A stretch of 62,970 nt of DNA, filler included, from Nemertoderma westbladi (Eukaryota > Animalia > Xenacoelomorpha): NCBI GenBank assembly GCA_032718475.1. It is 3 parts of 3 records of this genome, joined end to end, with 100 filler letters (N's around TTAATTAATTAA, not from the genome) between each part and the next. Parts side by side here need not be neighbours in the genome. Positions count along the whole stretch, not along the records: positions 19,949 to 50,008 come from JAUCBJ010004898.1; 2 more parts are not named here. One strand, written 5' to 3'. Shown here in pieces: positions 1,267-57,723 of the stretch (position 1 is its first letter; every line of letters starts with the position of its first letter). A model generated the notes under the pieces. That model did not search any database and was not told where the DNA came from. It worked only from the letters and a program-made list of their open reading frames with translations. A program made the position numbers and the translations under genes.

Positions 1267-1542
1267 CAGCTCTGGGATCGTTTTACCTAAAATGCCTAAA
1301 ATTACGATTATGTATGATCACGAACGCTCATGATCACGATTACGAACATGATTCATAAACACCCAAACAACCCGATATCATATTTAATTAACGATGTTCG
1401 TTCTCACCCTAAACATTTTTTCAACAAGTTAAAACGGCCTAGAGATTTTTAAAATCAATCCGTACCCTATAGTGACCCGATATTGTTAGACTTTAAATAA
1501 AAATTGTTTTTATTTTGTAGGTTCAATAATAATATCATAAAT

Positions 1543-4699: not shown

Positions 4700-5300
4700 C
4701 ATTAGTAACTATTTCCACCATCATTTCCAATGTTCTGATCTCAGGTGCAGTAGCAGGATGTCATCAGCACCATAACAAAGGACAAAGGTCCAGTTACAGT
4801 TAAAAGCGATTCCAAATCCTTATGTTTTCAGTTCTAAAAGAACATCACTTAAGTATAGATGGTGAACAGATAAGGAGATAACATGGATACCTGTTTCATT
4901 CCCTTTTTGAGTGGGATTCCTGTAACTTCACAATAATATTATCAAAATTCAGGTAAATTAAAAGGCATGATAAATTGAATGTGGCGAGAATATTAGAAAA
5001 ACAGTTTTGTAAGGACTTTAAGCCACAAGAAATTTAAAAAAAAATGACCACACTCCGACATTTTTTTTTTTATATCTTGTGGCTGACAGTCCTTACACCA
5101 CTGTTTTTTCTAAAATTCAGGTGGATTAGTGTCCTGAGGTAGTAATGAGCTTGCGCCAGGCATACATGGGGGGGGGGGGGGGGGGGTAGGAATGTCTTTC
5201 AGCTTTGTAAAAAGAATTGTGTAGTCTACATTGTGAAATGCAGAAGTAACATCCAGTTGACACAGAAAGGTAGTGAGTGTCTCCTTACTGACGATTGAAT
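4700..5300 (-). pseudogene. Degenerate non-LTR reverse transcriptase fragments
   Basis: LDVTSAFHNVDYTILFTKL (ORF 5110-5322), GMKQVSMLSP near 4875-4905 and ADDILL near 4750-4770 on the minus strand. Confidence 0.55.
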
Positions 5301-7319
5301 TCCAGGATTTCAAGCAGTGCATTTATTGTAATATCTGAACCTAGTTTACGTTGGTACGCAGTTTTCAAATCTGGCACATCGCCGCCGTTAAGTACTCCGA
5401 CAAGGTAACTGACTCATAAACCTTAGCAAGGGGTTCCACTGTTGCTATTGGTCGATAAGAATAATTGGCTAGTAAGCGGTTTTGTGGTTCCAAAGCACTC
5501 TGTAACCTGTCCAAGACGAAAGCAGGAGTTCATCACAGTGGCAAGAGCAGAACTGATTGTCCCAGGATCTGAAGCAACAGGTGCTCAGTAACTAGAGAGG
5601 AAAATCGGGGGCCTTTCCCTTGGCTATGGAACTGATTGCTTGTTGGATCCCACAAGGGGACAATGTCGGCAGTACTTCCACTGATAGTGATTGAGTTCTT
5701 CTAATGTGTCTGATAAGGGAACATTGTTGGTGCTATGGGCACTAATTTGGAAATTCTCCTTTATAATTTCCTTTACCTTAGACGGAGGCGGGGTGGTGTT
5801 CCTAGGATTTATACCTTTCTAAAACCGCCATGGATCCCTATGGTGATTCAAGACTGTCTTGTTCACCGATAACAACATGGTTTCTAGTAAGCCAATTTTT
5901 TTGTGTCACAGTCCTTTCTTTGATGGTTTAAAGGCAGATTTTGTATCAGTATTACCAGGTTTCCCTTCCTTTGTCCACAGAGAATAGACTTGCTTCGTTA
6001 CCCGTTTTTCTACTACTTTCAGTAGTGTTGAACGAATGCGCAGGTTCTTTGTGCATCGTATTTGTTTCAATTGGGATAAAACAGCATTTGCATTTGCTGA
6101 ATCAGCTAGAATCATTTCCAGTTCTCTAGCAAACCTACAAAATATGTTCTCTGTTAATGTTGTCACTTTCAGGGTACAAGTGTATCACTACATCTCACAC
6201 CATATCGTTACTAAAGGGTCTGTTTCAATATTTAATATAGTATCGGATGCACTTTTGATACACATTTGTTATATTTTTTACTTTTTGTTGTACGAAGTAT
6301 GAGTCTTTCCATGACATCGAACGTAGATAAATTTCTGATTACGAATATTGTTTTGAAAAGCTTTTCATAACAAGTTCCTTCCGGTTGTCGAAGATGCGAA
6401 AATAAACCGCTTTTTATTTCAAACCCTGTGCATTTGTTATGATGTCATACGATGTGTTGCATTCGTTACATAGAATTTTCATACATATGGTAGAATAAGA
6501 CCAATTTAAATAATAAATGTCACAATAAAAGTCGAAATTATTTAATCAACGAGATTACTAAAAATTAATTAGCCATAAAATCCAAATTTCTTCATAATTA
6601 TAATTATATTGGATATTTTTATACACACAATCCTTATCCGCGTTTTCATGAAAAAAGTATTATTTACCTGAAGAGCGCATGTATGACACTTCATTTGGTA
6701 ATTTCCAAAGACAGAGATTTGACAAATTAGTTGTGCCACATATGATCTTGTTTTGACATAACGGACCAATAAAATGTAAACCTTGAGGCCTTTTATTTTA
6801 AAACTTACAAAAGATTACCATATTGGTCGTCGTCGTCTAATCTGTATTAAATACGTCTAAGCAGAAATGATTGCAAACCGCTTAATTTATAGTGTCGAGA
6901 CCAAATAGCTTGAGGGTGCACTGCCAGTATCCTTCAATGGTACGGATCTCCCGTCGATGATATTTCTTTCCCCTCCCTGCCTTTGTAATTAACCTTTTCA
7001 ATGGGGGTTATTTCGAAATTCGAATAATCATAGTTTTCATTTTGACAAAAATGTTTCTCTATAATCGTTTGTGGCTTATGATTCATTATGTTACACTTAT
7101 ATTGGAATGGCCTTGGTATAAATGTTTCTGTTGATCCAATTCCTTGTAAGTTACATATTTTACATTTCGCTAAGTATTATTATTATATCTTCGTCATCAC
7201 AGGTAAAGCACTGTTTAATTTCATATTTAGTTTTCAAAATACCCTAATGGAACCAAAGCCCAAATGGACTACATCCTTATCAAAGCCGTATCCTGCGAGG
7301 CATACAGCTCGTTCAAACG

Positions 7320-8404
7320 GTGGAGACATAATCGAACCACAGAATCGTGACTGCAGATGTCAAACTCAGTTTGAGAGCCAGTAAACCCAGGACAAGCAAG
7401 CGAATCAACAGTGACTGGGAGAAACTCAGAACTGACAATGCAGTAAAGGATGCTTACACAGTAGAAGTTCAAAACCGCTTTGAAGCACTTCAGTCAAAGG
7501 ATGAAGACCAGTCTACCGAGTCTTCCCACAGTTATGACATTTGTGGACTTCAAGAAAACATTCGACTCCATCCATAGAGGTAAAATACTTGAAGTCCTAA
7601 GAACTTATGATATACCAGAAATAAATGACACTCATTATATTGGTGCACTGACAGAAGCTCAGGTACTCTAACCAGATGGTGATACTGAGTTCTTCTCAAT
7701 CCTGATTCTATATTTGTTTGTAGATTTTTGGGTGTTTTTGGTGTTTACCTTGACTTCTCAATCCTGGTTGGCATACTTTAAGTTGGCACATTGGCGCCAT
7801 TACTATTCATAATTGTGGCCATCCTCATTATGCAATGCAAGGAAAAGATTTGGGATTCACACTACAAGAACGCAGAAGTAACTACAGTCACAGACACCGA
7901 CTTTGCGGGTGACATCGCCCTGCTCTCTAATACGCTAGCAGATGCACATCTTCTACTGAATAAAGTGAAGAGGGCTGCTAAGGAGGTTGGATTGCATATA
8001 AATGCTACCAAGACCGAATTCATGACCTTTAATGTTGATGGAAACTTGACAACCATTGACAATAATCAACTAATGAAGGTTGACGACTTCCAGTACCTTG
8101 GGTCATGGATAGAGAGCAGCAAATAATACATAGAAGTTAGGAAAGCAAAGGCTTGGGTAGCTCTATCAAAAATGGATACCATCTGGAAATCAGATCTCTC
8201 CAGGCACCTGAATACAAGTTCTTTCGAGCCACAGTGGAAAGTTTATTTTTAAATGGGGGTGAGACCTGAACTCTGATGAAACCAATTTGTAAGGGATACT
8301 GGACTTGAGAGAAACGAAATTGTGACAACTATGGAGAATCGGGAAGCCTGGAAGGATCTCATTTCCACTGACCGAGTTCGCTCGACCTAGTAGTAGTAAT
8401 AGTA
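7320..8404 (+). mobile_element. RTE-clade LINE family A, 5'-truncated with several internal deletions
   Basis: VEVQNRFEAL, FVDFKKTFDSIHR, LAPLLFII, DTDFAGDIALLS, FQYLGSW motifs; ends in a (TAG)n tail; same family as 31686-35035. Confidence 0.9.
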
Positions 8405-8604
8405 TGTATATTATGGTATTATGTAGTGTGACCTTTTCAATCCGATTACTGATTCTTTTTGATAATGCTACTTTGGACAAATTAGGCGTCTAGGCATTCC
8501 TTGTGCCCAATATCGTTTCTTTCTGTGATTCATTATTCAATAATCATGTGTTTTGTCAATATTACCTATTTTGTCATTAAACAATAACTAACTAATGAAT
8601 TAAA

Positions 8605-8835
8605 CGGAAGGTGTCTCGGATAATTCAGTGTGATGGAATAATTTGAATCCTGCGAATTCTACTCACCAATTGTCGGTATCCCAATTGTCCGGGTCCCAAT
8701 TATCCGGGTCCAATAAGAATCCGGATAATTATGGAGCTCGGACAATTCGTAACCATTTTTAAAGTCATAATTTTTGTCCGGGTCCAAATTGTAGAATTCC
8801 GAATAGTCCGTGTCAGAATTGTCCGGATCCCTTAG
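8605..8835. mobile_element. Small MITE-like element with AATTGTCCGGGTCC subterminal repeats
   Basis: Repeated (A)ATTGTCCGG motifs in both orientations; imperfect termini, no clear TSD. Confidence 0.35.
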
Positions 8836-9176
8836 GTTTGTAGTCTTTATTAAATCGTTGTTGGGTTGTTTGGTTAACCCTTTCCGTCCTGTAGCAGAAT
8901 AAAAGTGTCCTGCGAAAGCACTGGGATGTTTGAGCCGATTTTAAATGCGAACAACCCTCTTTAAATTTCTTCAGTATTTCGGCTTCATGCATCTAGAGAT
9001 GTGGGAGACCCAAAAAAACGTCATAGGGCATTCTGTGATTGCGTAATGACATACCAGGTATGTTAAGACATGGCATACCTGGTATGTCATGACAGTGCAT
9101 ATAATTGACATATTTAGTATGTCATGGCAGTGCAGATAATTGACATATTCAGTATGTCATACAGTTCTCGATATTT

Positions 9177-9590
9177 GACAAGAGAAATATAACATAACCG
9201 ATACACAATATATATACATACAGATACACGATATACAATATAACCGATATATATATATATATATTATTTATATATCATTTATAATATATATACATATATA
9301 TTACATATAGACAACAGAAATATAACATAACCGATACACAATATATATACATACAGATACACGATATACAATATAACCGATATCTGTATGTATAATGTAT
9401 ATTACTAGAGAAATATAACATAACCGATACACAATATATATATATACAGATACACGATATACATATATATATATATCGGTTATATTGTATATCGTGTATC
9501 TGTATGTATATATATTGTGTATCGGTTATGTTATATTTATCTTGTAATATACATTATACATACAGATACACATATATATGTATATATCTC
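9177..9590. repeat. AT-rich composite repeat: three direct copies and one inverted copy of a ~70-bp unit with (TA)n
   Basis: AGAAATATAACATAACCGATACACAATATATATACATACAGATACACGATATAC near 9183, 9316 and 9409; reverse complement near 9475-9545. Confidence 0.8.
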
Positions 9591-9646
9591 GAGTTTATAT
9601 TGCACTTCAGTTGAGAATGAAATCTTTTAGTTAGAAAAATCGTCCT

Positions 9647-10483
9647 TCAATTACCAACGCCACCATCAAAACGTTTATGATAAACCTTAAAACAATCCAA
9701 GCATAATCCGGGGAGGTCAGTGCAATCTTCACATTGGTATCTGCTTGCTTTACGTACGCCTTTCTCGTAGCATACCCTACAGCGCTTTTGAGGACGCCTA
9801 GTCTTATCAGTTGGATACGGGGTGGCAATTGGTGATGCAACCCTCCGGTAATCACGAATTTTATTCTTCCTTGCACATGCCATTAGAATAGTCAAACCAA
9901 GAAAGGCTTTCATTTCTAGTTGTGTAACATCTTTGATCTTTCGAACATCAGATCCTCCACTTGTGCTTGGCTGTGGATCATCGGGTTTACTTTCCGTCGC
10001 CTTTATTTTATCATTCGTACATTTACAAAGCAGGTCAACTAAAGAATCTGTTATATATAGGTCCACATAACCACCCAGGTCTACATCGTATGTATCGATT
10101 CCATTCCATCCGCTCGGCGGTAGATTTCCTCCTCTAAACGTATAATTAACGCCGTCGACTTCGTCCTCATTGACTTTGATCTCCTTCCAACCGTCGCTAC
10201 CGGTACCGGTATTATTGCTGTTTATAATTATAAGTCTGAAATTATTCCCTCCAGATATCTCATCGACATCGCTACTCGTACTGTCGCTGTTTCCAACATT
10301 AACTTCGCCTGATTCGCTGTTCTCCGAATCTGAATCTCCGCCATTGTCGGAAACGGAATAGGCCTAATCAGATAAATTTCCAAATTCGCTCAAATCACCA
10401 TCACTCGACACATCATCGTCATCTTCATCAAACCCCAGACGCTTCAGTGGACGTATCTGACGTTTAGGGTAACTCTTATCCAT
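9647..10483 (-). pseudogene. piggyBac transposase remnant (acidic N-terminus + start of core fused to C-terminal Cys-rich domain; DDD core deleted)
   Basis: DVTQLEMKAFLGLTILM joined within ~30 aa to RCRVCYEKG...YQCEDC...LCLDCFKVYH; in-frame stop in the N-terminal part. Confidence 0.85.
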
Positions 10484-19848: not shown

Positions 19849-19948
19849 NNNNNNNNNNNNNNNNNNNNNNNNNNNNNNNNNNNNNNNNNNNNTTAATTAA
19901 TTAANNNNNNNNNNNNNNNNNNNNNNNNNNNNNNNNNNNNNNNNNNNN
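19849..19948. other. Artificial contig linker N44-TTAATTAATTAA-N44
   Basis: Six-frame stop linker flanked by Ns; identical to 50009-50108. Confidence 0.97.
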
Positions 19949-36355: not shown

Positions 36356-39149
36356 GACAAGTTATAATTATTAACCATATTTCGTAAGATATATTTTAAA
36401 ACATTTATTTATTATTAATTCTGTACGCGCTTTTGAAGACCTTTAGCAGTTTAACCTGCCAAAATTTATATGTCTTTTGGTTTATAAATAGACTTTAGAA
36501 ATTGACAAATATTTAATACCAATAAACACAACATTAGCAGAAGCCAGCCTAGTGCGCGTCCATTCACCCGCTGGATATACCCGGGAGACTGGATTCTGAG
36601 GGCTTAGATTATTATTGCAGTGTAAGCTTACTGTATTATTCGATTGATCGTTAATAAATAATTTCTGACTAATATTATTCACTTTCGGGAAATATTAACA
36701 GTTCCTTTAGGACGTGGCGCTCTATCTAGGTAAACAGAGATATGACTTATACTAATCACAACGGTAAGTCGGTAAGGCTTATGATTCACGTATGAGGCGC
36801 ATTCTTTAGGAAATGCTTAGTTATCAGTCACAATCATGCACACTACCGGTAACACACAATACTGCTCACTAAATTGCCGACCATCAATGAATTTTATCAT
36901 ATATAAAGAGAACAGCAACTGACTCATGTAGTGCTTATCAAATAGCATTAAATTCACTACAAACCACAATAATATAAGTCGCAATCGCTATATATAACCC
37001 GTCTCTCTAACCTGTAGTGTATCAAGAAAATTGGGAAATTTGGGTTCTTTATAGATGTTCTCCAAATAATATTCAACCAAAACACAACAGTAAATAGCAG
37101 TATAATAATGTATGTTGAACCGATAATGTAAGACTGAAGTGAGATAAGATAACAGTTATACGCTCTATAATTTAAGCCTACTAATGTTTCTTCTAAAGTA
37201 TGAAAACGAGTTGACTCTAGAGCCGGTGTTCCTGGCCTAGATAGAAACAACACAACAGTAACAAAAACACTCTCGGACTCTAACACCGTTGCAGGTATCT
37301 TTTTACACAGAGAGGAATAGCTCTCATTGGCAGAACACCAGATTCCACAGGTTCCACGAATATCTAAATGCCGAACTATCAGGATTTTTGCAGCCCTTGG
37401 CCAACACACAAAATGAGTCACTCCGCTCGGTTGCCCTGGTTGCATACTCTGCTGCTATAGCTCTGGTTGGCCGATAGAACATAGTAAAGAGCCCCTCGTA
37501 TAACAAATCAGCCAATCAGCCGGTCGCTTTGCATCATTCGAGTTAGAGAGCTTTTTAGAGTATTCCAGCGCCTGGGGGGGAACTGGATTGCAAAGCAAAA
37601 GGGCCAGTTATATCCCACAGAAGCTTTTACAAATTCAATAACTGAATAACCAGATAACGGAAAGACAAACCGAATTGAAACGTTTAATTACTAATAATAA
37701 TTGAGAGGTGATTGGAAATCAAGGATATATGTTATGTTATGGTAGGCACAGGCAAATTAATTGATGTCTGTTGAGATGTATTGAAGGAGCACTATTCCTT
37801 CTACAAGACTACTACAGTTATGTCCTTGTGGGCTAGCCTACTAGGGACTGGCTTGGTCATGGTCAATGACTTTAGCTTGCCTTGTTAGTAATGTACAACT
37901 TGAAGAATAAATTATTGGGCACGACTGCCCTTGCCATGCCTTAGGCTCAATGGGTAGAATGGAATCAGCGTATGAATTTACAATGTTAATTATGTTTAAA
38001 TCAATGAAAAATACCTTTATTAACGCAAATCACTTAAAAAATATAAAACTATAATGGAATGGGGTACATGGATTCCAGATATCTAATTTCTGTGCAAAAT
38101 AACTTTAATCGTATGGTGCTAAATAATTAATTTCCATGGAGAAACCGTTCAAAATGACTCAACCATACAATTTAGCTGAAGAAATTAATTTAGATTATGG
38201 CTTCCGACATTTATGGCTTCCGACACACACACGTACACACCACCCCCCCCCCCCCCCACACACACACACAGACTTTTGAAAAACGGCCATAGTATAATTA
38301 TATCAGTTCGCTGATGGTTAGTTATAAAACCCGAAAAAAACGAAAAGGACGAAATTATTTACGAAAATATCGAAATTATAAAACTTTAAATAAAATCTAA
38401 CTTTCCAGTGAGATCGGTATTATTAGAAGGCACACTTTACATTTTTTAATTAATAAAATCCGATAATTTCGCCCCATTTTCGACACTAAAAGTAATTTAA
38501 TACCAAATACTGGCTCTGCTGATTGGTTGTTAGGGGTGATCCAATGATTGCAAAACACCACAAGATGGCGCTCAAATTAGGACAGTACAGTCAGAGTGTA
38601 GGCCTACTGCAGTTATAGCGACTGTTGGACTGCAATTCTGTAGTTACGTTCACCTGTTCACATCCGCCGCGCCGCGTCACTTGCCTGACAGTCACTGTAG
38701 GCCTACAGTGCACACCTAGGCCAGGTAGCGCTAAAGGTACTGTATGCCGTAATGCAAACAACATTTCATATGGGAATTACATCGTTGCAGTCAGTTGCAT
38801 CAGTACACGAATACAGTGAACAGCCTAATATTACATTACAGTACTGCAGTATGCCGTTATCACCTGACAGTAGTCAGCTAGCAGGAAATCAGGTTGGTCA
38901 GACAGAAGGATACCGGTACTCCAAACTCTGATATTGTTACGGTGCCGCTGGTACCGACAGTGACTGTTGATAATGTAGCGGGTGAGCTTGGTGATTCGAA
39001 TACACCAATGTGTCTAGGGTTTAAGCCCAGACTGGGCAGATGAAGATGGTAAAGGTAATGGGGAGTCTACTCCTAGACCACCTATCGTCAATTCATGTTT
39101 AGCGTTTCTCCTACAATGTTATTCATCTACTACATTCGATGTAGGCAAG

Positions 39150-40436
39150 TTGGCGTGTTTGCAGCGTTTCACGTCTGATGATATTTGGCAAGCCAAAGTT
39201 ATGCTATTTTCGGGTTCTGAAAAGACATATATCGGTATGACTAACAGGCGTGACACCTCGGAACGTAGCGCTGGTGAGGCGAACATGAAGGACATGTGGG
39301 ACAAGATACGAGAGCTTGATCGTGCGGGTACGTTACCGGTAATAGCGGTTTCGGCGTTGGAGGCTTTGTCCCTGCCGCGCTTCCCCTTAGGTGGGTCCTA
39401 TTCCGGGGAGGACGATTCTGTTGCTCATGCGGAGCAGACAGCAGGTTTCGGAGTTCTGGATGGTAGAATCTCAAAATTAGAATCTAGTTTTAAAGATCAA
39501 TTAAGGAAGATGGAGGTGTCGTTCGTAGCCGAGTTGGTGAAGGTGCGTGAGTCAATTCATAACGCTAGTAACAACAGTAATGGTAGCGGTACTGAACAGG
39601 CTGGTGCCGGTACCGGTACCGGCACTGCCTCCGGGACCGATATCTTACCACTGTTACAGCCACCGCCATCAGTGGAGCGTTCGTTCAGAAATGCTGTTAT
39701 ATCACGACAGCGCCAGTCTGTGGTGCCGCAACCACCTGGTGTCAGCTATAGGCCGCCACAGCAGCCATCTATTGTTCAGCCTGCTCCTGGTATAGGGTAT
39801 AACCCGCCGGTAAACTACGGACAGTCGGGGAGATACGGTAATCGGTATCTGGGTCAGAAGAGTAATAACTACTACTCACCGTTGAGGGGGACACCGTCTG
39901 GCTCTCCCTCACCCGCAGTGGTGTTCCGAGGCAGTGTGAAACGTCCGCGACGAAATTCTGATTCTGAGAATATACAGGAGGTGGAGGAGTTGGATAACGA
40001 TGGTGGTGGTCGTTGGGAGGAACCCAGGTCGCGCCGTCAGCGTAATAATCGAAATCGTGGCCGTATGGTTGTCGGTTCAAACGAAAAGACTGAGGGAGAA
40101 ACTGAGGGTGGGTTGTGTGCGGCCCCAACGGAGATGTTCGTGTTTCGGTGTCATCCAATGACAACAGAAGCCGATATTGTCAAGTGTCTATCCAAACAGA
40201 ATGTTAAAGTTCCGATCTCAGGTGTTAAAAAAGTATCGGTTCAAGATTCGAGAGCAGCGAGCTTCCGGGTTTCGGTCAATACCAACCAGTTGGACGTTGC
40301 TTTCAGTGCGTCCACATGGCCTACCGGAGTTTATGTACGCGAGTGGGACTACCGACCCAGGCAGACTGGAAGTTTCGGTCGGGGTGGTTCCGGGCAGGTT
40401 CGAAACAACTCCACTATGGGACAATCTATGCAATAA
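39150..40436 (+). CDS. LINE ORF1 protein (coiled coil, low-complexity region, C-terminal RRM-like domain); true start probably upstream near 38851 behind a frameshift
   Basis: In-frame upstream IVNSCLAF..DIWQAKVMLF; C-terminal FVFRCHPMTTEADI...SFRVSV...WPTGVYVREW; 37 nt before ORF2. Confidence 0.82.
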   Translation: MACLQRFTSDDIWQAKVMLFSGSEKTYIGMTNRRDTSERSAGEANMKDMWDKIRELDRAGTLPVIAVSALEALSLPRFPLGGSYSGEDDSVAHAEQTAGFGVLDGRISKLESSFKDQLRKMEVSFVAELVKVRESIHNASNNSNGSGTEQAGAGTGTGTASGTDILPLLQPPPSVERSFRNAVISRQRQSVVPQPPGVSYRPPQQPSIVQPAPGIGYNPPVNYGQSGRYGNRYLGQKSNNYYSPLRGTPSGSPSPAVVFRGSVKRPRRNSDSENIQEVEELDNDGGGRWEEPRSRRQRNNRNRGRMVVGSNEKTEGETEGGLCAAPTEMFVFRCHPMTTEADIVKCLSKQNVKVPISGVKKVSVQDSRAASFRVSVNTNQLDVAFSASTWPTGVYVREWDYRPRQTGSFGRGGSGQVRNNSTMGQSMQ

Positions 40437-40473
40437 GTACATCAGGTTAATATACGGACAATAATAAATAACA

Positions 40474-43400
40474 ATGGCGTCACAAAGTAACTTACCTAAC
40501 AGTACTGAACTTTTTTGTGTAGCCTCGTATAACCCAACCGGTTTGGGATTGGCTAAGGTTGATTTTATAAATACCCTATTATTGGGCTCTAATGTTGTGT
40601 GCCTACAGGAGCATTTTCTATTATCTGGTAATTGTTATAAATTTAAAAAAATATTTCCGAACTGCGATAATAGTGTTGTACCAGCGACTTACATTAATGA
40701 TGAAGTCACCCGCGGGAGACCTAGCGGTGGACTTTGCATATTATGGAAGAAATCAATTACTAAATATGTATCTGTAATAAAAACTAATAATAGAAGGTTG
40801 CAGGCGATTTCTTTAAATTTGCCAGGTAGGAAACTGTTATTAATAAATTCGTATTTTCCGGTAGACAATCAGCACAGTGCCACACTCTCAGACGAATATT
40901 TAACTTTGTTGAATGATATTAAAGACATTATACAGATGTCCCAGTGCAGTAATATTCTATTGGTTGGTGATTTAAATGCAGACTTTTTTCGAAACTCATT
41001 ACATGTGCGTAATATGAAGGAATTTCTAGATGATATGTTATTACATTGTTTATGGAATATATTTCCGATTGACTATACTTACGAATTTTTGTCTGATAAT
41101 ATAATTCAACGCTCCACTATCGATCACTTTATAGCCAGTCATTCATTCTATTGTAAGTGCTTGTATAGAGGCCGATGTCATACATTCAGGGGAAAATCTT
41201 TCCAACCACAGTCCCATTTATTTGAAGTTTAACATTGATAGTATTAATGTAGTTGGGACCGCAGTTCAACCACCCATTAAGCATTGCTATGGCAAAGCTA
41301 GTACCGAGCAAAAAAATATTTTTCATTCCGAGTTGGAAAGATCCCTAAATGATATTTTATTGGAAAATCAGTGCTATATGTGTAATGATTTATTATGTAC
41401 TAAGCCTGAACATCGTTTAATGATTGAAAAATACGTTTTGGAAATTTTAGAAGCAATTGATAATGCGGCGTCTAGCCTGCCAAATACGAAAGGTACAATT
41501 CAACGTCAAGGTAATAAAGGTATAATACCTGGTTGGAATGAACAAGTAAAAGATTTTAAATCGAATTCGATGTTTTGGCACGATATGTGGAGCGCTGCAG
41601 GTAAACCTACTGGTGCAGGTAGTTATTTATTTCATATGCGTCGCACTTCTCGTGCACAATATCATTTTGCAGTTCGTAGGTTGAAGAAATCTCAAGATAT
41701 CATCAAACGCGATAGAATTTTACAGGCGTGCTTAAACGGAAATGATAACCTTTTTGATGAAATCAAAAAATTTCGCGGTAACCAACAGGTACTTGGCGAA
41801 TCAATAAACGGTGTTAACAACCCAAGTGACATTGCGAATAACTTCGCCAAAATTTACAAGGAATTGTATAATCAGAATTATAGCGGTGACACAAGTGTTG
41901 ATGATATCGAAAATGATATAAATTGTAGAATTAGAAACCTAATTGGTAACAATAATGTATCGGGTACAAATTGTGCAGGTTATCGAGAGGTATTGTCGCC
42001 TCGTATAATACATGAGGCATTGTTGCGTTTAAAAAACGCCAAATCAGATGTCAGTTATAGTCTTGACTCAGGGTCTTTAATTAATGGTGGCCATATTCTA
42101 GAACATCATTTATCTATATTATTTAACTCTTTTCTTTCACATGGATTGGTGTCAAAGTGTCTTTTATTGGTTTCTATTATTCCGATCATTAAAAATAAAT
42201 TAGGCGATATATCTGATGATAAGAATTACCGTGCAATTGCAATATCTTCTTTGATTCTGAAAATTTTTGAATGGGTATTATTATTAAGTGAAGGCGATAA
42301 GTTATGTTTTGATGACTTACAATTTGGGTTCCGTCCAAATTCTAGTACTGTAATGTGCAGCTGGTCGGCTTCGGAAGTAATCAATTACTATATGAGACAC
42401 TCATCGCCCGTATTTGGTTGTTTGTTAGACTTTACAAAAGCGTTCGACCTTGTTGAATGGCTAAAGCTGTTCCTTGAACTATTAAAAAAGGGTTTTTCAG
42501 TTTTATATTTAAGGTGCCTCATTTTTATATACAGAAACCAAGTTTGTGCAGTAAAATGGTTGAATTGCAGCAATTTTAATTTTTTAATTTCTAATGGGGT
42601 CAGACAGGGTTCTGTTTGCTCGCCGACATTGTTTGCTCTGGTGTTAAATATTCTAATTGAATCTCTACGTGACTCCAAAGTAGGTTGTTTTATAGGGAAT
42701 TATTATTTTGGTGTTTTGGCATACGCCGATGATGTACTGTTATTGTGCCCATCTGTGGTTGGATTGCAATATATGGTCGATTTATGTCAAATTTTTTGTG
42801 CTAAATATAACTTGCGATTAAGTACAAATGTTGATCAGGATAAATGCAAATGTAAGTGTATACCATTTAATTTTAAGTGGAGTCCACCCGGTGCTAGGAT
42901 TAGAGTAGGTACAATTCTTCTCCCGTGGGCAAGAGAAGCTGTTCACCTAGGTATTACACTTGACTTTAAATGCACTTTAGCCAAGGACATTTTACGTAAA
43001 CGCGGCCAGTTTATTGGGAAACTCAATAACATTAGGCAAGAGTTTGGCTTCTCGCACCCTGGTAATCTAACATATCTACAAAAGTTATACACTATGTGTT
43101 TTTATGGTAGGTAGCAATGCATGGAATTTATGGTCCGATGAATGTTCTAGAATCTTAACCAGCTGGAACATTAACGTTAGGATTATATGGCAGTTGCCTT
43201 ATAATGCTCATAGGTATATTGTACAAGAAATTGTAGGATTTATACATCCATGGGTTATTTTATGCAAAAATTTTGTTGGTTATTGTAGGTCTATTTTTAA
43301 TGCTGATAGGATGTGTATTAGATTCCTAGCTAACTTAATGCTATTTGATTGTACAGTAGGAGTACTAGCGGAAGTAATTTACGTCAGATTGGTAATGAGT

Positions 43401-43597
43401 GCGGGGTGTCGGATTTATCTTTGTTGTCCACCCGTACTGTAGACAATAAACTATCATATGTACGCACTCCGCCGGGTGAGGAGTGGAGAGTTAATAGCTG
43501 CAGAGAAATCGTAAACTCAATTGTAGGTGTAACTAATATACCTGGTTTTACGCATGATGAGCTTAGAGATATTTTGAATTATATTTCTTCCACTTAA
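40474..43597 (+). pseudogene. ORF2 APE endonuclease + reverse transcriptase, three frameshifts
   Basis: CLQEHF, GRPSGG, GDLNAD, IDHF; PGWNEQVK..FWH..W; QFGFR, LDFTKAFD, GVRQGSVCSP, YADD. Confidence 0.92.
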
Positions 43598-47690: not shown

Positions 47691-47775
47691 TGTGTTCTGT
47701 TAATTAAGTTAAGTTAATTAATTAATTTATGTTTGAAATAGTGATGAAGATTATTTACTATATATAGTATAGTAG

Positions 47776-47950
47776 GGTCAGTAATGGTTGACCGATGCGC
47801 CTGTAAATAGCCTCTCGTCAACAAGTGAACCCCACCGACTAGCGGTACTGACTGTTTTTGCTGACGGGGCTCTGTCGAACAACGCGTCCCTGATAGCAGT
47901 AAAGGGGGTCTCTTTATTGAGAGGCAGTATTATTATTGCCGCGGAACTGC
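47776..47950 (+). ncRNA. Candidate conserved structured RNA element, copy A
   Basis: Aligns by eye to the reverse complement of 51505-51699 with compensatory stem changes; function unknown. Confidence 0.55.
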
Positions 47951-49062
47951 CCCAACTCATCACCTCTCCCGTTTCCGCTCTCCGACGAAAATGAACATAA
48001 AATCAACACACACCAACCCGCTACCCTACCGACAGCCGACACCCACCCACACCTACTATCTGAAAGATTGTACCCAATACAAAAAAACAGGATAAGTTGA
48101 ATCACACAACTAAAGCGGTAAGCTTGCAAGACGAATGCATGATTTACTTAGAATATCGGTCATAATCTCATTTCATGGAATACTGTACATATTGTACAAA
48201 ACTTTTACTAAATTAATTGCAATGCTCACCTATCATTTCGCCGAGTGTCAATACATACTCTTACATACTCATGCATGTTAAAAATTAAGGTTAATGGTAC
48301 TGTACAAATCTGACGAATACTGGGATTGTAATTCATCTAGCATGATATAAACTAACGAACAAATTGGCAATTAATATGGCTGATATTTACTTCCTTTTCA
48401 TGTATATTTTTCAGAAATATTTCAAATGCATTAATTTACATATTTTCAGGCCCTTTCATCCCATTTTACCAAATTTTACTTTCAGGGATTTTAAGTTCCA
48501 TGCGGTATAGGGTTCCGCAACTTTTAGTGGCAACACTAGAGACATCTAACCCAGGGTAGGGTATTCCTTAAATACCCCCTGTAGGTGTTGGGCTGGGCTC
48601 CTATGGGTAAGATACAGCATAGCGCACTACCCAACTAACAAATTTCCACTAAATCTTCCACTTTCTTCTCTAAAACGCTCAAACTACCGTCCCAACTTCA
48701 GAAAAACAGAATAAAATTGGATTAGTTAGTAATAAATACTATTACTATTTAATAAAGGTTCTATACCTATAATGATAACGGACAATATCTCTACTAAATA
48801 CCCAACAAAACAATCCATCTAAGCACTTCTTCCCAATTAACAGATTACCATTGCATCTCACTATACCACATCAAAAATCAATGTCACACCACCACTGCCA
48901 TTTCATTACATTTATAATGATATCAACAACCCAAAGACCATTTGCTATCATCTCATTTATAAAGCGCGATTTTATTGATGGAGATAAAATTATACCCCTG
49001 TTATATTGAGTATTCACCAAGCATCAACCTGAAAAGAACAAACCAACAACATCTATGGGAAA

Positions 49063-49093
<31 letters not shown>

Positions 49094-50008
49094 AATAAAC
49101 ATGTCAACTGTTGATTTATGACTCCAGCTAATGGACTATAAACAAACACCAGTGACTCTCGAATTACAGACCTTCCAACCACCACACAATGCTCCCATTC
49201 CTACACCATTAATGAAACACTCATAACCGACCTTAGAATTTTCCTCCCCTCCATTCCCCACACGGCGGGCAGCATTATTAGTCCTTCAGAATATGAGTCA
49301 TCAATATCAAATACTGTCAACCCCTACAGGCAGCAGACCAACTATCCCACTGACTTATACAAAATGAAACAATAATGACGAGAGCAATATAAGAGATAGA
49401 GGTTACACATTTAATACTACTAACAATTTAAACAACCCCCCCCCCCCCCCCCCCCCCCTCCCTTATACTACTAACCATTTAATACCCCCCTCCCCATCCT
49501 CTATCGCACTACGTCTACTACTACAGTACTAACCGCGTCAAACAACAAACCCCTCGACCCCCCCACCCCTCTATCACTACTACTAGTGATTAGTAGTAGT
49601 CTACTACTAACCATTAAACACCCCCCCCCCCCACACCAACTACTGTAGGTCTACTACTAACCACTAAAGGGTAGTTGTGCATGGTAGAACCGCTGTGACT
49701 CATCCTCAGAGGATGTGGTGATTGGCAGGTTGACGCCTGTAGCATTATATATATAGTATAGTAGTATATTATTATAGTATATTATAATTGCCACCTCAAT
49801 CCTTCAGCCTCTACCGGAACAATTTACGTGATTCTTATTTACACACTTTCTAACATTGCATTTTCTATTATATAATATACACAATACACGTGTTTAGTTT
49901 GAACGGTGTCAGATATTTCGGGGATTAGAACGGGATTTTCACCGATTTCAGGATTTCAATTTTTAATAAATCGATGTAAGTGTGAAAGCAACTTTGTAAC
50001 CTTTTATT

Positions 50009-50108
50009 NNNNNNNNNNNNNNNNNNNNNNNNNNNNNNNNNNNNNNNNNNNNTTAATTAATTAANNNNNNNNNNNNNNNNNNNNNNNNNNNNNNNNNNNN
50101 NNNNNNNN
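50009..50108. other. Artificial contig linker N44-TTAATTAATTAA-N44
   Basis: Identical to 19849-19948. Confidence 0.97.
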
Positions 50109-51504
50109 ATCATCATCGTGTCTGCACGGTACTTCACATAGCGCCCCATTTGGTGATCTCCAGCGAATGTTTGGATTTGACCTGACCAAATTGGTTTACT
50201 ACGGAAGATCCGCAGTGGGCACACCTGGGCGGGTGTGGGCCACTCGGAATCCGACGAGGCGGTGCACATATTGACATTTGGCGTATATACATTTCTTACA
50301 GTAGGGAGCCACTGGGTTAAGAGTTTATACGTTATACTTAATATGAACTAAAAGAAGAAAGTGTTGGCGATGTATCTGAAAAATAAATAAATAAACGTTG
50401 CTCTTTGTATCTCAAGTTGATTTGGATTAGGACAATGTGATACTTTTAACTCCTGCAATAGTTCAGGTGGTTTGATGAGACTGCTTAGGGGTGGGGTGGG
50501 GTGTGGGGGGGGGGGGGGGGGTAACTAAGAAAATGTGACAAAGAAATGGAAAGAAAGTCAATGTTATAGTAAATGGATTTGTGTTATGTAATACTCTGTA
50601 GCAGCTGCTGGCTCCGAGGTAACTAATTTTGTATAGCCTGGGACTGACTGTCTCTGGGTAGTATATTGAAGACATAAGTCTGTGAAGGGGAGATAATGTT
50701 TACTTTAGCTTTGATTTATGTTGTCAGCCCGGGGCGTCCTTCCGGTTCAATGAGTTATTGGGCAGATTTATTACATTGCAAGACTGTTTGATGCTTATGG
50801 TATATGGATCGAGGTGAAGTTATTATTATAAACATTGTCAAATTAAACAGAGTTATCAGGATGGAAAACTCATTTTGTATAATGTAGTATCCTCAGACCA
50901 CACCTGTGACAAAAATTGATGGATTGGGATAAATAGGGCTGTAGGGTGGGAGTTGGTGTGTATGCCGCCTATGGAATAGGAATAATATAACTGTTTTAAT
51001 TATAACATTGACCTGCGGAATCAATGAGAATTGTATGGAAGTAGAAATCTAATATTTATATCAAACACATGCTTGGTACTGTATCAGGGGATTGCCGCCT
51101 GTCAATATGTACACGTTCTCTGAACCCAGAGTTATACTGCCGTATTTGGGCGAATACGACAGGCTACTGTACTATACAGTACGTTTGTTGTGGTTAGTGA
51201 CGGGTTGTTAGTATATCATGCAAAATGAATGTAGGACTTTGTAATTATTTTGCCAATATTGGGACCATGCATTTTCTAACTTACAGGTTTCGTTGCATTG
51301 CTTGGATAAAACTTATCCTGTATTCTATAATGCGTGGTATTTTACTCTCCGACATCGGTAGAGGTGAAGAGGTGTGTTGTTGGTCTGCCTCTGCGTCATT
51401 GGGGCGGGGGGGGGGGGGGGTGTTGGGGCAAGTGTCAGATTCATCTATTCGTGTTGATGGTTGGTGAGGATTCTACTTCTGGCTAGGTCTGGCCTAGAGT
51501 AGAA

Positions 51505-51699
51505 GCAGTTCCGCGGCAATAATAATATTGCTCCTCAAAAGAGGGCCCTTACTGCATCAGGGACGCGTTTTTCGACAGAGCCCCGTCAGCTGAAACAGCC
51601 AGTGCCGCTAGTCGGTGGGGTTGACTTGTTGACGAGAGGCTATTATGAGGCGCAATGGGATACGCATTGCGTATCTTCTTCTGTCAACCAATACTGGCC
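51505..51699 (-). ncRNA. Candidate conserved structured RNA element, copy B, ~270 nt downstream of the SAP-SGNH ORF stop
   Basis: Same strand as the ORF; homologous to 47776-47950 with an added GATACGCA-A-TGCGTATC hairpin. Confidence 0.55.
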
Positions 51700-51970
51700 A
51701 TTTGTATACATTGATATTAATAAAAGCATAAAAATTGCTGTTAACTATGATAATATTAGAGATTCTGTAAATATGAAAAATAATTGATTATACATGTAGT
51801 TGCTCAAATTAAAATCAATATCACAAATGCTGAGTGAGTCATTAACTAATATAGTATCTTTAGTCAGTGTGAATAATAATATTACCATAAAAATATTTAA
51901 AATAGTGAATGCTGTATATTAGTCATTGTGGTTTAATTGGGGTGTTTGTATGCATAAATAATATATTGAT

Positions 51971-54415
51971 TCAGGTATCTATTGCCTGTAAAAAATGTAT
52001 TAAAGCCCCTATTACGCGTTTATTGCACCCGGTAGGTTTACTAAGAGTGGTATCCACTAGAACTGTTGACTGTACCTTGGACTGTCGGATGGCACTCGGC
52101 TGAGGTTTTGGGTACGATCCTGGCTGAGGTTCCGGTTGGGAACCACAATGAGGTTCCGGGAAGGAATGAGGCTCGGGATCATGGAAGGAACCACGCTGAG
52201 GTTCAGGGTAAGAACCACGCTGAGGTTCCGGGTAGGGACCACACTGGGGTTCCGGGTAGGAACCACGCTGAGGTTCCGGGTAGGGACCACGCTGGGGTTC
52301 CGGGTAGGAACCACGCTGAGGTTCCGGGTAGGGACCACGCTGGGGTTCCAGGTAGGAACCACGCTGAGGTTCCGGGTAGGAATGAGGCTCGAGTTCATGG
52401 GAGGAACCACGCTGATGTTTAGGGTAGGAACCATGCTGAGGTTCCAGGTAGGAACCATACTGAGGTTCACGGTAGGAACCACGTTGAGGTTCACGATAGG
52501 AACCACGCTTAGGTTCATGGTAGGAACCCCACTGAGGATCCGGGAAGGAACCACGCCGAGGTTCCGGGTTGGAACCACGCTGAGGTTCCGGGTTGGAACC
52601 ACGCTGAGGTTCCGGGTAGGAATCACGCCGAGGTGCATGGTAGGAACCACCCTGTGGATCAAGGAAGGAACCACGCTGAAGTTCCGAGTAACCTGTCCCG
52701 GTCCGCGGCTGATATGCTGAAGACGGAGGCTGTCTGAATCGTGAGTTACCATTGTTTGGGTTGTATGGTGTCTGTATGAGACCCGCCTGATGTGTTGGCA
52801 TCGCGTTGGGTAGCCGCCACGGCGCTGGCCGCGAGTAGATCACCGGTCGAGTCGGAATGTCGCCTGTGGTGGAATTATCAGGAGCACGATCACGCTCAGA
52901 TTGCGGTCTTACCTTGTCGATAATAGATCGCACTAGTAGGCGAATATTGCTTTCTTTAATGTGTTTATTGTCATATAAATGAGTAAGTAAAATGTTCGAA
53001 TGATCAACATATGTGCAGTTATTCTTACTCGTTATTCCACTGATCAACTCATTTAGTTTATCCACCTCCTTGTCTTTTCTACATAGTACCGATGATACAA
53101 CTACATGACACCTCGGCCATGTTTCCTTTGCAAACTTTACTCCATTTTCTATATATTTACACACCTGATGGGCCGACTCCTTGTCGAAGTCATTAGTTCC
53201 GGTTAATATAAACACAGAGTCGATGTTTTTGTGTTTGTCCGACGCGGACTTTAATACGGATTCTATTTGAGCCGCTTTGGAGCACGGTACCATCTTGGCG
53301 TCTCGACGTATTTTTCGGGGGTATATATATTTTCTGTTGCTGTCCATCACCAGTAGGCAGCGTATATCCTCGTATTTGGATGGATTTTGTGCGGTGAATG
53401 GAGGGGAGCTAGGTTGATCTGTAACTTCGGTGCTATCATGGTGCTCCGGTTCCCTTACCTCGGGTCCGGTATTCACCTCAGCCTGTTGCGAGTCTATAGG
53501 CAACTCTACTACCGATTGATTTCCATCGACCTTTGTCTCCTCTGATTGAGTCTTATTCGACAGCAGGTCTACTTCACTAACCGTATCGTAGTTGGGTAGA
53601 TCTGTTTGCGTCCCATTTGCATTTCCAGGAGTTAAGGTTAACTTACTTTGCTCCTGACTTTCTTGTTTGTTGTCCATATTATTATCGTTTGAAGTATTGT
53701 TGCCTTCTTCCAGTAAATGTACGCGATCCTGTAGTTTCGATATTATCTTCATATTGTTCCTATTGGTTTTAAGCAACTGTCCCCATTGTAGCTCCAGTGT
53801 TTTCATCCTCTGGTCTAGATCTATGTAGTTTGTAGGCTGTGTAGCAACATTGGAATGTGGATCTGGATATGCATGTTGAGTCATCATTTCGTCGCCGCTT
53901 TCGCTGTCTGTATCCGAAACATTATTACGAGAGAATGTGACGGTGTCATTCAGCGGCACTGCGACCTCGAATTTGTTGACATAGGAGTCATCCGGACTTC
54001 CGACGACGACATCCGCTATCAGTGGATCGTCACCGCTGATGTTGACTGATCCTATAGGTATAGGCCTATAGGAAATAGGGGCTGGAGATGGGCTGGGTAC
54101 CGGTAGGCGTGGGTCTAGATTTTGGTACTTTCCTGGGGCAGAGTTCCGTCTACCAGTACCCGTAGGCCTACTTGTACATGATTCCCTAACAAAGCGTACC
54201 TGCGCGTGTTCATGTAGTCGCTGTACAAAATCGTTTCTTGAACCAGTTGTTTCCATACCAAGTCTAGTTAATTCGGCCTTCAGATCCGGTACAAACCATT
54301 CTTCATAATTTACAATTCCGGTATCGGTACCGGTATCGGCGGTTTCAAAAGTATCGGTATCCGATGTGCTGGTTAACTCTAATCGCGATCTTTCGCGATC
54401 CACTGTTGCCGCCAT
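51971..54415 (-). CDS. Intact 814-aa LINE ORF1-like protein: SAP domain, coiled coil, SGNH/GDSL esterase, C-terminal octapeptide repeats
   Basis: SAP-like WFVPDLKAELTRLGMETTGSRNDFVQRL; heptads LDQRMKTLE...LQDRVHLLEE; SGNH blocks LLVMDSN, TGTND, DNKH; (EPQRGSYP)n. Confidence 0.85.
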   Translation of the reverse strand: MAATVDRERSRLELTSTSDTDTFETADTGTDTGIVNYEEWFVPDLKAELTRLGMETTGSRNDFVQRLHEHAQVRFVRESCTSRPTGTGRRNSAPGKYQNLDPRLPVPSPSPAPISYRPIPIGSVNISGDDPLIADVVVGSPDDSYVNKFEVAVPLNDTVTFSRNNVSDTDSESGDEMMTQHAYPDPHSNVATQPTNYIDLDQRMKTLELQWGQLLKTNRNNMKIISKLQDRVHLLEEGNNTSNDNNMDNKQESQEQSKLTLTPGNANGTQTDLPNYDTVSEVDLLSNKTQSEETKVDGNQSVVELPIDSQQAEVNTGPEVREPEHHDSTEVTDQPSSPPFTAQNPSKYEDIRCLLVMDSNRKYIYPRKIRRDAKMVPCSKAAQIESVLKSASDKHKNIDSVFILTGTNDFDKESAHQVCKYIENGVKFAKETWPRCHVVVSSVLCRKDKEVDKLNELISGITSKNNCTYVDHSNILLTHLYDNKHIKESNIRLLVRSIIDKVRPQSERDRAPDNSTTGDIPTRPVIYSRPAPWRLPNAMPTHQAGLIQTPYNPNNGNSRFRQPPSSAYQPRTGTGYSELQRGSFLDPQGGSYHAPRRDSYPEPQRGSNPEPQRGSNPEPRRGSFPDPQWGSYHEPKRGSYREPQRGSYREPQYGSYLEPQHGSYPKHQRGSSHELEPHSYPEPQRGSYLEPQRGPYPEPQRGSYPEPQRGPYPEPQRGSYPEPQCGPYPEPQRGSYPEPQRGSFHDPEPHSFPEPHCGSQPEPQPGSYPKPQPSAIRQSKVQSTVLVDTTLSKPTGCNKRVIGALIHFLQAIDT
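52095..52690 (-). repeat. Coding 24-bp tandem repeat, ~24 units, encoding EPQRGS(Y/F/N)P
   Basis: GGTAGGAACCACGCTGAGGTTCCG variants on plus; frame preserved throughout. Confidence 0.95.
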
Positions 54416-54586
54416 TTTAGACGATCGTTGATAATAGCATCAGTCAGATGGAAGAGTCAGTCTTGCAGTATCGGTATCCGATGTGCTGGTTAACTCTAAT
54501 CGCGATCTTTCGCGATCCACTGTTGCCGCCATTTTAGATGATCGTTGATAATAGCATCAGTCAGATGGAAGAGTCAGTCTTGCAGT
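54350..54586. repeat. 117-bp tandem duplication spanning the ORF1 start and leader; candidate divergent promoter region
   Basis: 54350-54466 and 54467-54583 differ at one base; each has GCCGCCATTTT (YY1-like) and TCAGT (Inr-like) motifs. Confidence 0.9.
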
Positions 54587-54821
54587 CAGTCAGTGCTTCA
54601 AATTTTAGTTTTTTAGTTTCAGTAATTGCAGAATTACTGGACAACAATGAACTGCAACAATACCGCAGGTCTGCATTTGTCTAATATTCTATTATTCCAT
54701 TATTATTCCAGTTATATCCCAGTTATTCCATTATACTATTCCAGTATCTAAATCAAAAGTACATAATGACCAGGATGAAAAAGGCAATGCAAATGCTAAC
54801 CGAAACTCAAACCTTAAACTG

Positions 54822-57723
54822 ATGACATTTAATTGTGATGGCTTCAGTAGAAACAAAACTTACATATATAATGTTATGGAAGAATGCAAACCAGACATAA
54901 TTAGCATTCAAGAGCACTGGCTTGGTCCACAACAAGCTGATTTTTATTTCATGCGTTCTAAGGTTCATTCTGAGTACTCATGCATCACATTTACAGTTTC
55001 TAATGAAATGCTGATACCGAAACCGCGTGTGAGAGGTGAGGGAGGAACAGCACTATTTGTAAGAAACTGCCTTATACCCTACTGCAAGCCATTAAACACT
55101 GGGTCAGATAGAATTTGTGGTATTCTGCTTCAATCACTATTTGAACAAGGTATTGCGATTATAAACGTGTACATGCCTGCAAATTGTAACCAGGCTGATG
55201 ATGAAACAAAATATTCAAAAGTAATTGAACAATTACTCAATCCTGGATGACTGCACTAACAACAACTTAGCTCCTGTAATTACGGGGGACATAAATGGTT
55301 CCATAGGTGTTGGGAAGCTACATCCCCGGGGAGCTAAGAAATACTCAAAATTTGGTAAACTATTCAATGAGAAGATTATTGAACCAAATAATTTCATTGT
55401 GGCTGATTTAACATCAAAGGGTTCAGGATTGAACTTCACATACAGCTTGCATCGAAACTTCGATGATTCACTAATAACAAGCTCAATTGATCATATTATT
55501 ATTCCAGATACTTGGTTCCCTTATCTAACATGTGCATCTGTTGTTAAACCAGTTGCAATGAACCTTTCTAGGCACACACCGGTGACTGCATCACTACAAT
55601 TGGAACAATCTAAACTTATAACAAACGGGTGCAAGAAAGTTAAATTAAAGAATACTCGCTGGAATTTCCATTCAGCATCAACAAGTCAAATTATTAATTA
55701 CAAGGAGGAAATAAAATCCGGAATATTACAACTCAATGTTACAACAAACTTCCTTAATTTGGATCAACGAACTGAAGGTCTAGTGCAGATAATTGGAAGA
55801 GCTGCAAGGAATTACATTCCAATGTCTTTTGTTAAATACAGACCCCATAAGAACCCTGGATCGTTTCAGACTCATATCCGGAGCCTGGTTAATTCAAACA
55901 AAAACTCGAAGTCCTTTTGGAGGAAAATAAAACCTAAACGTGAACACATGTTTACTGATAATCAGTTATCACAAATACACAAGGATGTCTCAAAACAGTT
56001 TTCAAAGGAATCTGTAACCACATTAGAAGACCTGAAGTCTGAAGGACCATCTAAGATGCATCAAACTGAAACAGACATCAAATGCCACTCAAAAATGGAA
56101 AGTGAAGATGGTGCTATTGATCCCGCAGATATAGAGTATTTGATAAATAGTCTGAATCGTGGGAAAACAAACGATATTTACAATATAAATGCTGAGTGTA
56201 TTGTTTATGCCAATTCACCAATTCTTTGTAGTTTTATTGCAGCATTATTTAGCGATATTTTGAAGGCTGGAATCTGCCCAAAGGTATTCTCTCTCAGCAC
56301 CATCACGCCAATTCCAAAAATAAAATCAAAGCGTACAACAATTACGGTTTCACCTGAGATATCATTTCGCTATATTATCATCACACTGACGATAGCTAAA
56401 CTCTGGGAGCTATCACTGCTAAAGGACTTATCTTTGTTGCCAACTAATAATCTCCAACTTGGCTACAAGCCTGGTTCTGGATATGACATAGCACATCTAG
56501 TCGCTAATAGTGTTCTCAATAAGTTCACGAGGAAAAATTCACCTGTATACTTGATGAGTGTGGATCTCATGTCTGCTTTTGATAATGTCTGCCATGCCAA
56601 GTTATTTGAGAAGCTCAGAAAGACTGAGTTAAATCCCAATATTATCGATGCTTTAGATTCTTTCTACTCCCAATCCAAAGCATTTATAACAGCTGACGGT
56701 CATAGAATTAAAACTCCAATCCATATTCAGAAAGGTGTACGTCAAGGGGGAATCCTATCTCCTCTTTTATTCAATTTCTACTTGAAAGACCTTATTGATG
56801 AGATGGAACAAAGCGGCTTGGGTGTTCATATAGGGCAACAGTCATTTGCAGTAGTAAATTATGCTGATGACATAATATTAATTTCGAACATGAAAATAGA
56901 CCTCATAAATCTGCTGAACATATCATCGAACTATTTTCAAGAACACGACTTGCAGCTAAATGTAACAAAGTGTCATTTTATTTCGCTAGATACCAAGGGG
57001 AAGGCCATATTAGACGACAATATAGTTTTCAATGGGGAGACAATTACATCAACGCTAGTATGCAAGTATATGGGATTGCCTATTCCTTGCGATCAAGCAT
57101 CAATGTTTTCTTTTCTAAATGGGAAGATTTGGGGTAATGCAGCTCAAATGACCCGGAATGGGTTTTCAATTACCGATGTCCCCTTAAAAATAACCAAACT
57201 GATATGGAATGTGATTTGTATCCCAAGTATTATCTATGGAGCAGCAAGTCTATCTTCTAATAACATTGATGTTATTGCGAAACAGATAAGAAAGGCTATG
57301 CGCTCGATTCTACATTTAGACAACAAGATATCAAACTATATGTTATATAAGTTGTTTGACTTGAATATAGAGGTGCTACTAAGGCTACAACAATTCAATT
57401 TCACCCATCGGATATTCAATACCGGAAATTCTAAGATAACATGGCTCTTCACGAATATCCTCTGTGATCATTGTATTGGGTCTACCATAGATATGTTCTC
57501 TTCTTATAAAATTTCGTCATGGGAATACGAGTTACCTAACTTATTGTCCCTAGCTGTGTCAAGTTATTCTACCAAACACTGTGGCAACAAAGTTAAGAAA
57601 ACATGTAATGATCTTATGTCTCACAAAGAGGAGTTTTTATCTATTTATTGTATTGATATTTTAAATAAATATAACTTAAACACTTTTGCACGACTATCAG
57701 TACTAAAAGAAATGTTAATGTAA
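54822..57723 (+). CDS. Non-LTR retrotransposon ORF2 (APE + RT), RTEX-like; one frameshift near 55240
   Basis: LMTFNCDG, IQEHW, GGTA, NVYMP, GDIN, IDH; QLGY, DLMSAFD, GVRQGGILSP, YADD, KYMG; (TA)n tail near 57788-57802. Confidence 0.88.

Follow-up and report, generated by a model that had tools for sequence, protein, structure and literature searches.

A candidate self-processing RNA at the 5' end of an abundant non-coding mobile element of Nemertoderma westbladi

Non-autonomous retroposons without a Pol III head need some other route to a precise 5' end, and the routes known are ribozymes of the HDV-like and twister types. Six LINE clades carry 5' ribozymes (PMC5786205), and where the DNA upstream of a ribozyme varies and that downstream is conserved, the ribozyme has been read as a retroposon head (PMC6765202). 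In HDV-like ribozymes P1 has 6–7 bp (PMC3774820), and a structured insert at J1/2 is normal (PMC4908430). The U20·G25 pair is described as a family signature, kept in all natural variants, and a G·G mutant is 470-fold slower, not dead (PMC3386971); G25 is also given in PMC13635239 and bioRxiv 2022.05.31.494017. Among R2 ribozymes a third have mismatches in P2, P4 may be missing, and one active case has a mismatch in P3 (PMC3774820). Bipartite derivatives that lack ORFs usually retain the 5' end of the LINE together with the ribozyme there, and have been described for RTE, Ingi, Vingi, and R2 only (PMC5786205); retroposon 5' modules serve to head the templates in gene insertion (PMC13708176). 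The element head described here sits at the position expected of such a ribozyme but breaks the U20·G25 signature, and it would prove to be one of three things: an HDV variant found in nature that departs from the accepted consensus, a catalytic fold of a new type, or a start module without catalysis; in the first case, descriptor searches would miss ribozymes of its kind. New small-ribozyme classes are, to our knowledge, rare. A search of titles and abstract openings of open-access papers returned no account of the motif.

The window, a stretch of 62,970 nucleotides from N. westbladi (assembly GCA_032718475.1), joins three contigs through N spacers with a 12-base linker at 19849–19948 and 50009–50108. 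The head is present in it twice, on separate contigs, as copy A at 47776–47950 (+) and copy B at 51505–51699 (−), both delimited by pairwise alignment and by a step in contig depth at 47776 and 51699, respectively. An earlier note on this DNA had described the two as a structured RNA motif much more alike than their flanks, and the alignments agreed: BLAST matched the copies at 86.5% over 163 nt (E 8e-50), 153 of 170 columns were identical in a global alignment, and the 150 nt upstream aligned no better than shuffled sequence (score 40.5; shuffled mean 51). The weak downstream homology noticed at the same time was also recovered, as a faint block 100–300 nt past the head with 64% identity over 180 columns and a score (94) above all 100 shuffles (maximum 83.5). 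Identity between A and B is 90% in the head and 57–64% in the body. Copy B is near the family majority and carries 25 extra bases near its start, including a 7-bp hairpin at 51675–51659. Neither BLAST nor a model search detected a third copy in the window; a weak model match at 37463–37512 (E 2.6) was inspected and dismissed.

We aligned contigs of four DNA runs (X1, X2, X3, and X5) on each copy; the runs represent at most three samples, since X1 and X3 share one, and the best-matching sample may be the source of the window. Summed contig depth does not equal copy number; the position of the depth step, in contrast, was exact at both copies. From bin 47755–75 to bin 47776–96 depth rose from 40 to 6642 in X1, 42 to 3202 in X2, 123 to 10184 in X3, and 0 to 476 in X5, with a peak along copy A of 36,392 in X1; from inside copy B to past 51699 it fell from 5902 to 212, 1918 to 256, 8665 to 756, and 69 to 11 in the same order of runs. 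Loose contig ends before 47776 were mutually discordant (agreement 0.59 among five contigs and 0.65 between two), loose ends at 51699 came from 8, 3, 2, and 1 contigs in X1, X2, X3, and X5, and in all four runs many AT-rich flanks, differing among contigs, were joined at the first base of the head. A 17-bp sequence that occurs exactly twice in the window lies at 47759–47775 (+), abutting the depth-defined 5' end, and at 49748–49764 (+). Recurrence as such is common, as 231 of 8,249 window 17-mers recur 200–4000 nt downstream; unlike chance recurrences, this duplication sits exactly at an independently set 5' boundary. Since the pair abuts that boundary, we place element A at 47776–49747 (+; 1,972 bp), with a 3' boundary, inside a TA run, that is uncertain by a few bases. 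The exact depth step, the varied flanks, and the 17-bp target-site duplication together led us to conclude that the motif is the first 175–195 bases, the 5' end, of an abundant non-coding mobile element, and the proposal that it is a cis-acting retroelement RNA is supported to this extent. Depth in the upstream flank of copy B (51706–51730) was 212–756 in X1–X3, as against 40–123 beside copy A, and copy B may therefore be nested in a further element of moderate repetition. Loose ends at 47810–47889 and 51561–51640 revealed, in all four runs, a head of diverged type; it lacks the 3' junction domain and runs on into a short G/T-rich repeat, and both altered ends occur on one X5 contig.

A long duplication without terminal repeats is a sign of target-primed reverse transcription. 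In element A the 5' head and the 3' end resembled each other at chance level only (755 of 2,000 shuffles), and no terminal repeats were found; with a duplication of the variable-length type around copy A, dispersed copies, and no coding capacity, the A/B family is likely a non-autonomous non-LTR retroposon. The body of element B (50109–51504, −), likewise non-coding, has faint homology to body A, and no duplication was found around element B before the contig ends. Element A ends in a predicted stem-loop before the TA run (49670–49747, +; folding z −1.5); this 3' end matched none of the LINEs in the window, and the TA run overlaps the duplication. An inverted repeat of short, repeated C-rich units also lies within element A, at 49576–49675. 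The longest open frames in the element bodies are 77 aa (element A) and 79 aa, and frames from the first ATG span 5–48 aa. No protein remnant was detected in either body against Pfam (read through stops), the LINE proteins of the window, or 120 RT homologues, in a search in which a control region gave matches; with neither an ORF nor a Pfam or RT remnant, we rule out protein coding, an explanation that would have undone the structural proposal, as the source of head conservation. Like the bipartite ORF-less derivatives RIME, NARTc, SIDER, SIDE, and Bov-A (PMC5786205), the element is non-coding, of high copy number, and flanked by a target-site duplication, and it shares a 5' hallmark among diverged bodies; unlike them it is about 2 kb long and no parent LINE was found in the window. 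As in those derivatives, one contig appears to join head and 3' end directly: this X5 contig exits the head at 47899 and its next 22 letters, compared by eye, match 49733–49754 at 21 of 22 positions, suggestive of a short copy of the element made up of head and tail. A sharp 5' end, high copy number, and a conserved head on exchangeable bodies are also features of SINEs. Element A is much longer than the usual SINE and, unlike in SINEs, a head derived from a small RNA is absent: ARAGORN found no tRNA gene in the head and Rfam no tRNA, 5S, 7SL, or snRNA head, and we rejected these classes.

Comparison with Rfam, one of the checks proposed with the motif, disclosed no known family. Nothing in the whole window reached gathering score, and at E ≤ 10 there were only xanthine, mir-606, and STnc410 matches, all at chance level; the weak mir-606 match stems from the C-rich inverted repeat. 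Schistosoma Perere-3 carries twister variants at its 5' end (PMC8501958), and these too lie beside the target-site duplication of an element that is not site-specific. Unlike them, the head, compared by eye with the table of that paper, has neither the UAA site, nor the AA of an L4 (UCCCAAGC) closed by P4, nor GAGGG; its 3' domain holds UCCC/AGGG and GC/GC look-alikes without the 3' strand of P4. The same Rfam library detected a twister in a viral contig (L024) and none in the head. For hammerheads, including non-circular permutations, both CUGA sites lack the final GA of the CUGAnGA block (by eye, with the rules given in PMC10085705), and the GAAA block reads GAAC in 32–89% of depth. We therefore rejected both classes, in agreement with the earlier failure to fit canonical hammerhead or twister cores. 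Likenesses to pistol, hatchet, glmS, RNase MRP, telomerase, HEARO, and c-di-AMP RNAs were also rejected, as core parts are missing and Rfam gave no support. The head would act by analogy with the twister and HDV-like ribozymes that begin other non-LTR elements, yet it departs from every one of these families in one or more defining features.

For the HDV-like heads of R2, R4, RTE, LOA, and L1Tc/ingi (PMC3774820, PMC4035085, PMC4908430), the likeness consists of the exact 5'-end position, a 7-bp P1-like helix from base 1, a variable hairpin insert at J1/2, C22 and G25 in L3 and, as in the silkmoth R2 ribozyme, the absence of P4. Unlike these heads, the present one has a G for U20, an A·C first P3 pair in most copies, a P2 of 4 contiguous bp, a J4/2 one base too long, a stronger competing fold, and an extra 68-nt junction domain. 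The P1-like helix (helix a), which the earlier note had missed, pairs 47776–47782 (+) with 47847–47853, opens with a G·U pair at base 1, and has 7 bp in both copies, as expected of an HDV P1 of 6–7 bp starting at the first base of the element. It ties for the most stable helix common to A and B, its third pair (47778/47851) is U-A in copy A and C-G in copy B, and no variants in it are listed in the runs; shuffles gave a 7-bp helix from base 1, no more than one G·U being allowed, in 891 and 1,045 of 20,000 cases (4–5%). Around it an HDV-like arrangement (fold H) can be drawn with a core at 47830–47869 (+), which fits a relaxed descriptor only and excludes helices c and d described below: P2 (47830–33/47866–69), P3 (47834–36/47844–46, directly before the 3' strand of P1), a 7-nt L3 (47837–43, whose C and G occupy HDV positions 22 and 25), P1.1 (47838–39/47854–55; A-U plus C-G), and a putative catalytic C at 47861. 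The pairs of P3 are all perfect in copy A; the first is A·C in copy B and in 79%, 81%, 64%, and 11% of depth in X1, X2, X3, and X5. In place of U20·G25, both copies have G·G. The HDV consensus places the catalytic C in a 4-nt J4/2. Here the joiner has 5 nt, and the following P2 its 4 bp rather than the at least 5 of the family. A strict descriptor, composed from the HDV consensus, fitted neither A, B, nor a metagenome locus introduced below (L008) on either strand, and Rfam gave no match of the head to an HDV or other ribozyme model at E ≤ 10. A relaxed descriptor anchored at base 1 fitted A and B and 1 of 20,000 shuffles for each; it was loosened after the sequence was seen, and this frequency therefore overstates its support. 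The earlier statement that an HDV core could not be fitted thus stands for the strict descriptor and fails for the relaxed topology with helix a.

A second arrangement (fold R), exclusive with fold H, combines helix a with two helices from the earlier note, both present in both copies: its long helix, c, in which 47809–47820 (+) pairs with 47862–47871, and helix d, in which 47836–47842 (+), with a bulged U, pairs with 47872–47877. Calculated stacking is −13.2 kcal/mol for c and −7.0 for d, as against −9.9 for P2, with P3 and P1.1 of fold H outside the comparison, and fold R is predicted to be stronger than fold H. Helices a, c, and d cross one another and may be unable to form all at once. We consider it likely that the head folds into a pseudoknotted RNA.

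Searches for relatives returned one locus of interest. A three-block pattern gave 10 metagenome loci (7 distinct), 9 of the 10 chance-like, and another pattern gave none. L008:189–300 is intergenic, on a metagenome contig of 73% GC, ahead of a broken LuxR-like gene; in it helix c is extended, the 3' strand of d is present, and helix a, of 8 bp and unrelated sequence, opens with a G·U pair at the spacing seen in copy A, 3 nt past d. Its chance probability, a product of three marginals, is 0.7–1.7e-4 per match and about 1e-3 over the matches, with thresholds set to what L008 meets. It has neither P3 nor P1.1 of fold H and no Rfam match, and BLAST against plasmids and phages gave short chance matches, as did the head against plasmids. 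The pattern matched by L008 found one locus, chance-like, in all GTDB genomes, which counts against L008 as a member of a conserved bacterial family. On its sequence, L008 is a possible distant relative of the head, bacterial-looking and unreplicated in GTDB. Pattern scans of viral contigs gave 0, 0, 0, 9, 4, 28, 19, and 12 loci, none with the fold, and none of 37 distinct viral segments passed all three helix tests. A sequence-only model (R1) built from three sequences was run on 61 genomes from a single bacterial class, of which 6 gave matches at E 0.02–0.09, the chance level; it matched none of 3 plasmids. Two known RNAs turned up beside these searches: a type-P5 twister ribozyme at L024:644–709 (53.1 bits), unrelated to the pattern match on that viral contig, and an ASdes sRNA at L010:3151–3218 (89.1 bits).

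The reading we tentatively prefer, at a little less than an even chance, is that the head is a self-cleaving 5'-processing ribozyme, situated 5'-terminally in the element and not between ORFs. Of the two catalytic folds considered, each is unlikely when taken singly: a deviant HDV-like double pseudoknot is the less doubtful, and the a-c-d fold as a different core somewhat more so. That the latter is a new self-cleaving class, in which mutually crossing a, c, and d cut before a G·U pair both in an animal retroposon and in the GC-rich bacterial L008, seems to us improbable. The observations underlying the preferred reading are the sharp 5' boundary, unrelated flanks, 17-bp duplication, lack of coding, and helix a from base 1. 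The predicted cleavage site is directly 5' of the head (47775/47776 in A; 51700/51699 in B). An element without a promoter of its own would be transcribed by read-through from promoters neighbouring its copies, the head would cut just before G1 and so give every RNA the same 5' end, and a LINE protein would bind the 3' stem-loop and, through target-primed reverse transcription, insert a copy of the RNA in AT-rich DNA. Internal promoters also yield sharp 5' ends. The head might instead be a structured but non-catalytic 5' module, in which such a promoter fixes where the RNA begins and the fold shields its end or serves the LINE protein as a binding site; we think this unlikely, though it is the foremost of the alternatives. 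The boundary, duplication, and conservation data fit it equally, no known catalytic core is complete in the head, and the trypanosome Pr77 hallmark combines promoter and ribozyme, with some well-folding copies that do not cleave (PMC4035085). Against it, no head derived from a tRNA or other Rfam RNA was found, and it leaves unexplained why the best helix opens on a G·U pair exactly at the first base and why helix a is placed 3 nt after d, or directly on the P3-like stem.

It is improbable, in our estimate, that no RNA structure has been selected at all, A and B being subfamilies of a young repeat that recently exchanged a GC-richer head, with helices that arose by chance. The statistics of pairing lean this way. 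All pairings named in the earlier note can be drawn in both copies, as claimed; the covariation drawn from them did not exceed chance, with three Watson-Crick double changes in shared helices of at least 4 bp against a null mean of 1.46 (P = 0.19; 1,500 simulations), and in one of the two compensatory pairs that it lists (47846/47851) the changed base also belongs to helix a (47778/47851), which is longer and more stable. Two-copy covariation is no evidence of structure here. Folding of whole copies, by ViennaRNA, which ignores pseudoknots, was no better than that of shuffles (z −0.58 for A and −0.85 for B). Of 33 variants listed, which are unphased and under-reported near contig ends, five exceeded 10% in X1–X3, all outside helices a, b, c, and d; with so few common variants, the invariance of the helices says little. 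In helix c three of four variants keep pairing and one breaks it at 1–2%, and in helix d two become G·U, a third moves the pairing register, and a change present on a single contig disrupts a pair. The 3' domain (47883–47950, +) is predicted, from folding of A and B, as a four-way junction closed by 47883–86/47940–43, with a first-hairpin loop (47896–47900) complementary to the tail (47946–47950) in a predicted pseudoknot; there, five variants of low depth disrupt pairs in CCCU/AGGG, GCAGU/ACUGC, or CCUC/GAGG, and another disrupts the last hairpin. Against chance helices stand the rarity of the relaxed HDV fit among shuffles, the avoidance of helices by common variants, the recurrence of three helices in L008, and the single dominant fold of the 3' domain in copy B, where the junction has a frequency of 0.52 (z −1.8; copy A is similar, z −1.4).

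We regard as quite improbable that the head, or its 3' four-way junction, is an IRES that comes from an autonomous LINE and drives translation of an ORF behind it. HDV-like heads of R2 and L1Tc have been proposed as IRESs (PMC6765202), and the 3' domain is predicted to form a multi-branch junction and a pseudoknot. However, no ORF lies behind either copy, and Rfam gave no match to an IRES family. This 3' domain also bears what we take to be a loose resemblance to the pseudoknot domain of the HCV IRES. The original suggestion was of an intergenic IRES following ORF1. A position after an ORF1 is true of copy B only, and incidentally: the ORF1-like gene at 51971–54439 (−), with weak SAP and GDSL-like matches that are both below Pfam cut-offs, is a neighbour outside the element and has no homologue among 6,666 candidates. 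Copy A is preceded by an antisense fragment, which we take to be L2-like, and not by an ORF1. Neither copy lies between two ORFs or ahead of a translated ORF, and the motif is entered from many unrelated flanks; because ORF1 only neighbours copy B and no ORF follows, the intergenic IRES is unsupported.

The group I consensus comprises a P4-P6 domain, the P7 register, and J8/7, and a remnant group I-like core (P3/P7 pseudoknot) co-opted by the retroposon is very improbable, since what we take, by eye, to be a resemblance of 47832–47841 to J6/7-P7, with helices a and d crossing in P3-P7 order, is set against the lack of P4-P6 and J8/7, a 3' strand of d out of P7 register (by eye), and no group I, lariat-capping, or GIR1 match in Rfam at E ≤ 10. 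Among the neighbouring genes, the SAP and GDSL-like ORF (−) stands head-to-head with an endonuclease-RT pair at 54651–57723 (+), across a gap of about 210 bp, and a 117-bp tandem duplication occupies 54350–54586 in the region of that ORF. A near-complete LINE, with ORF1, endonuclease, and RT in shifted frames, lies at 39018–43442.
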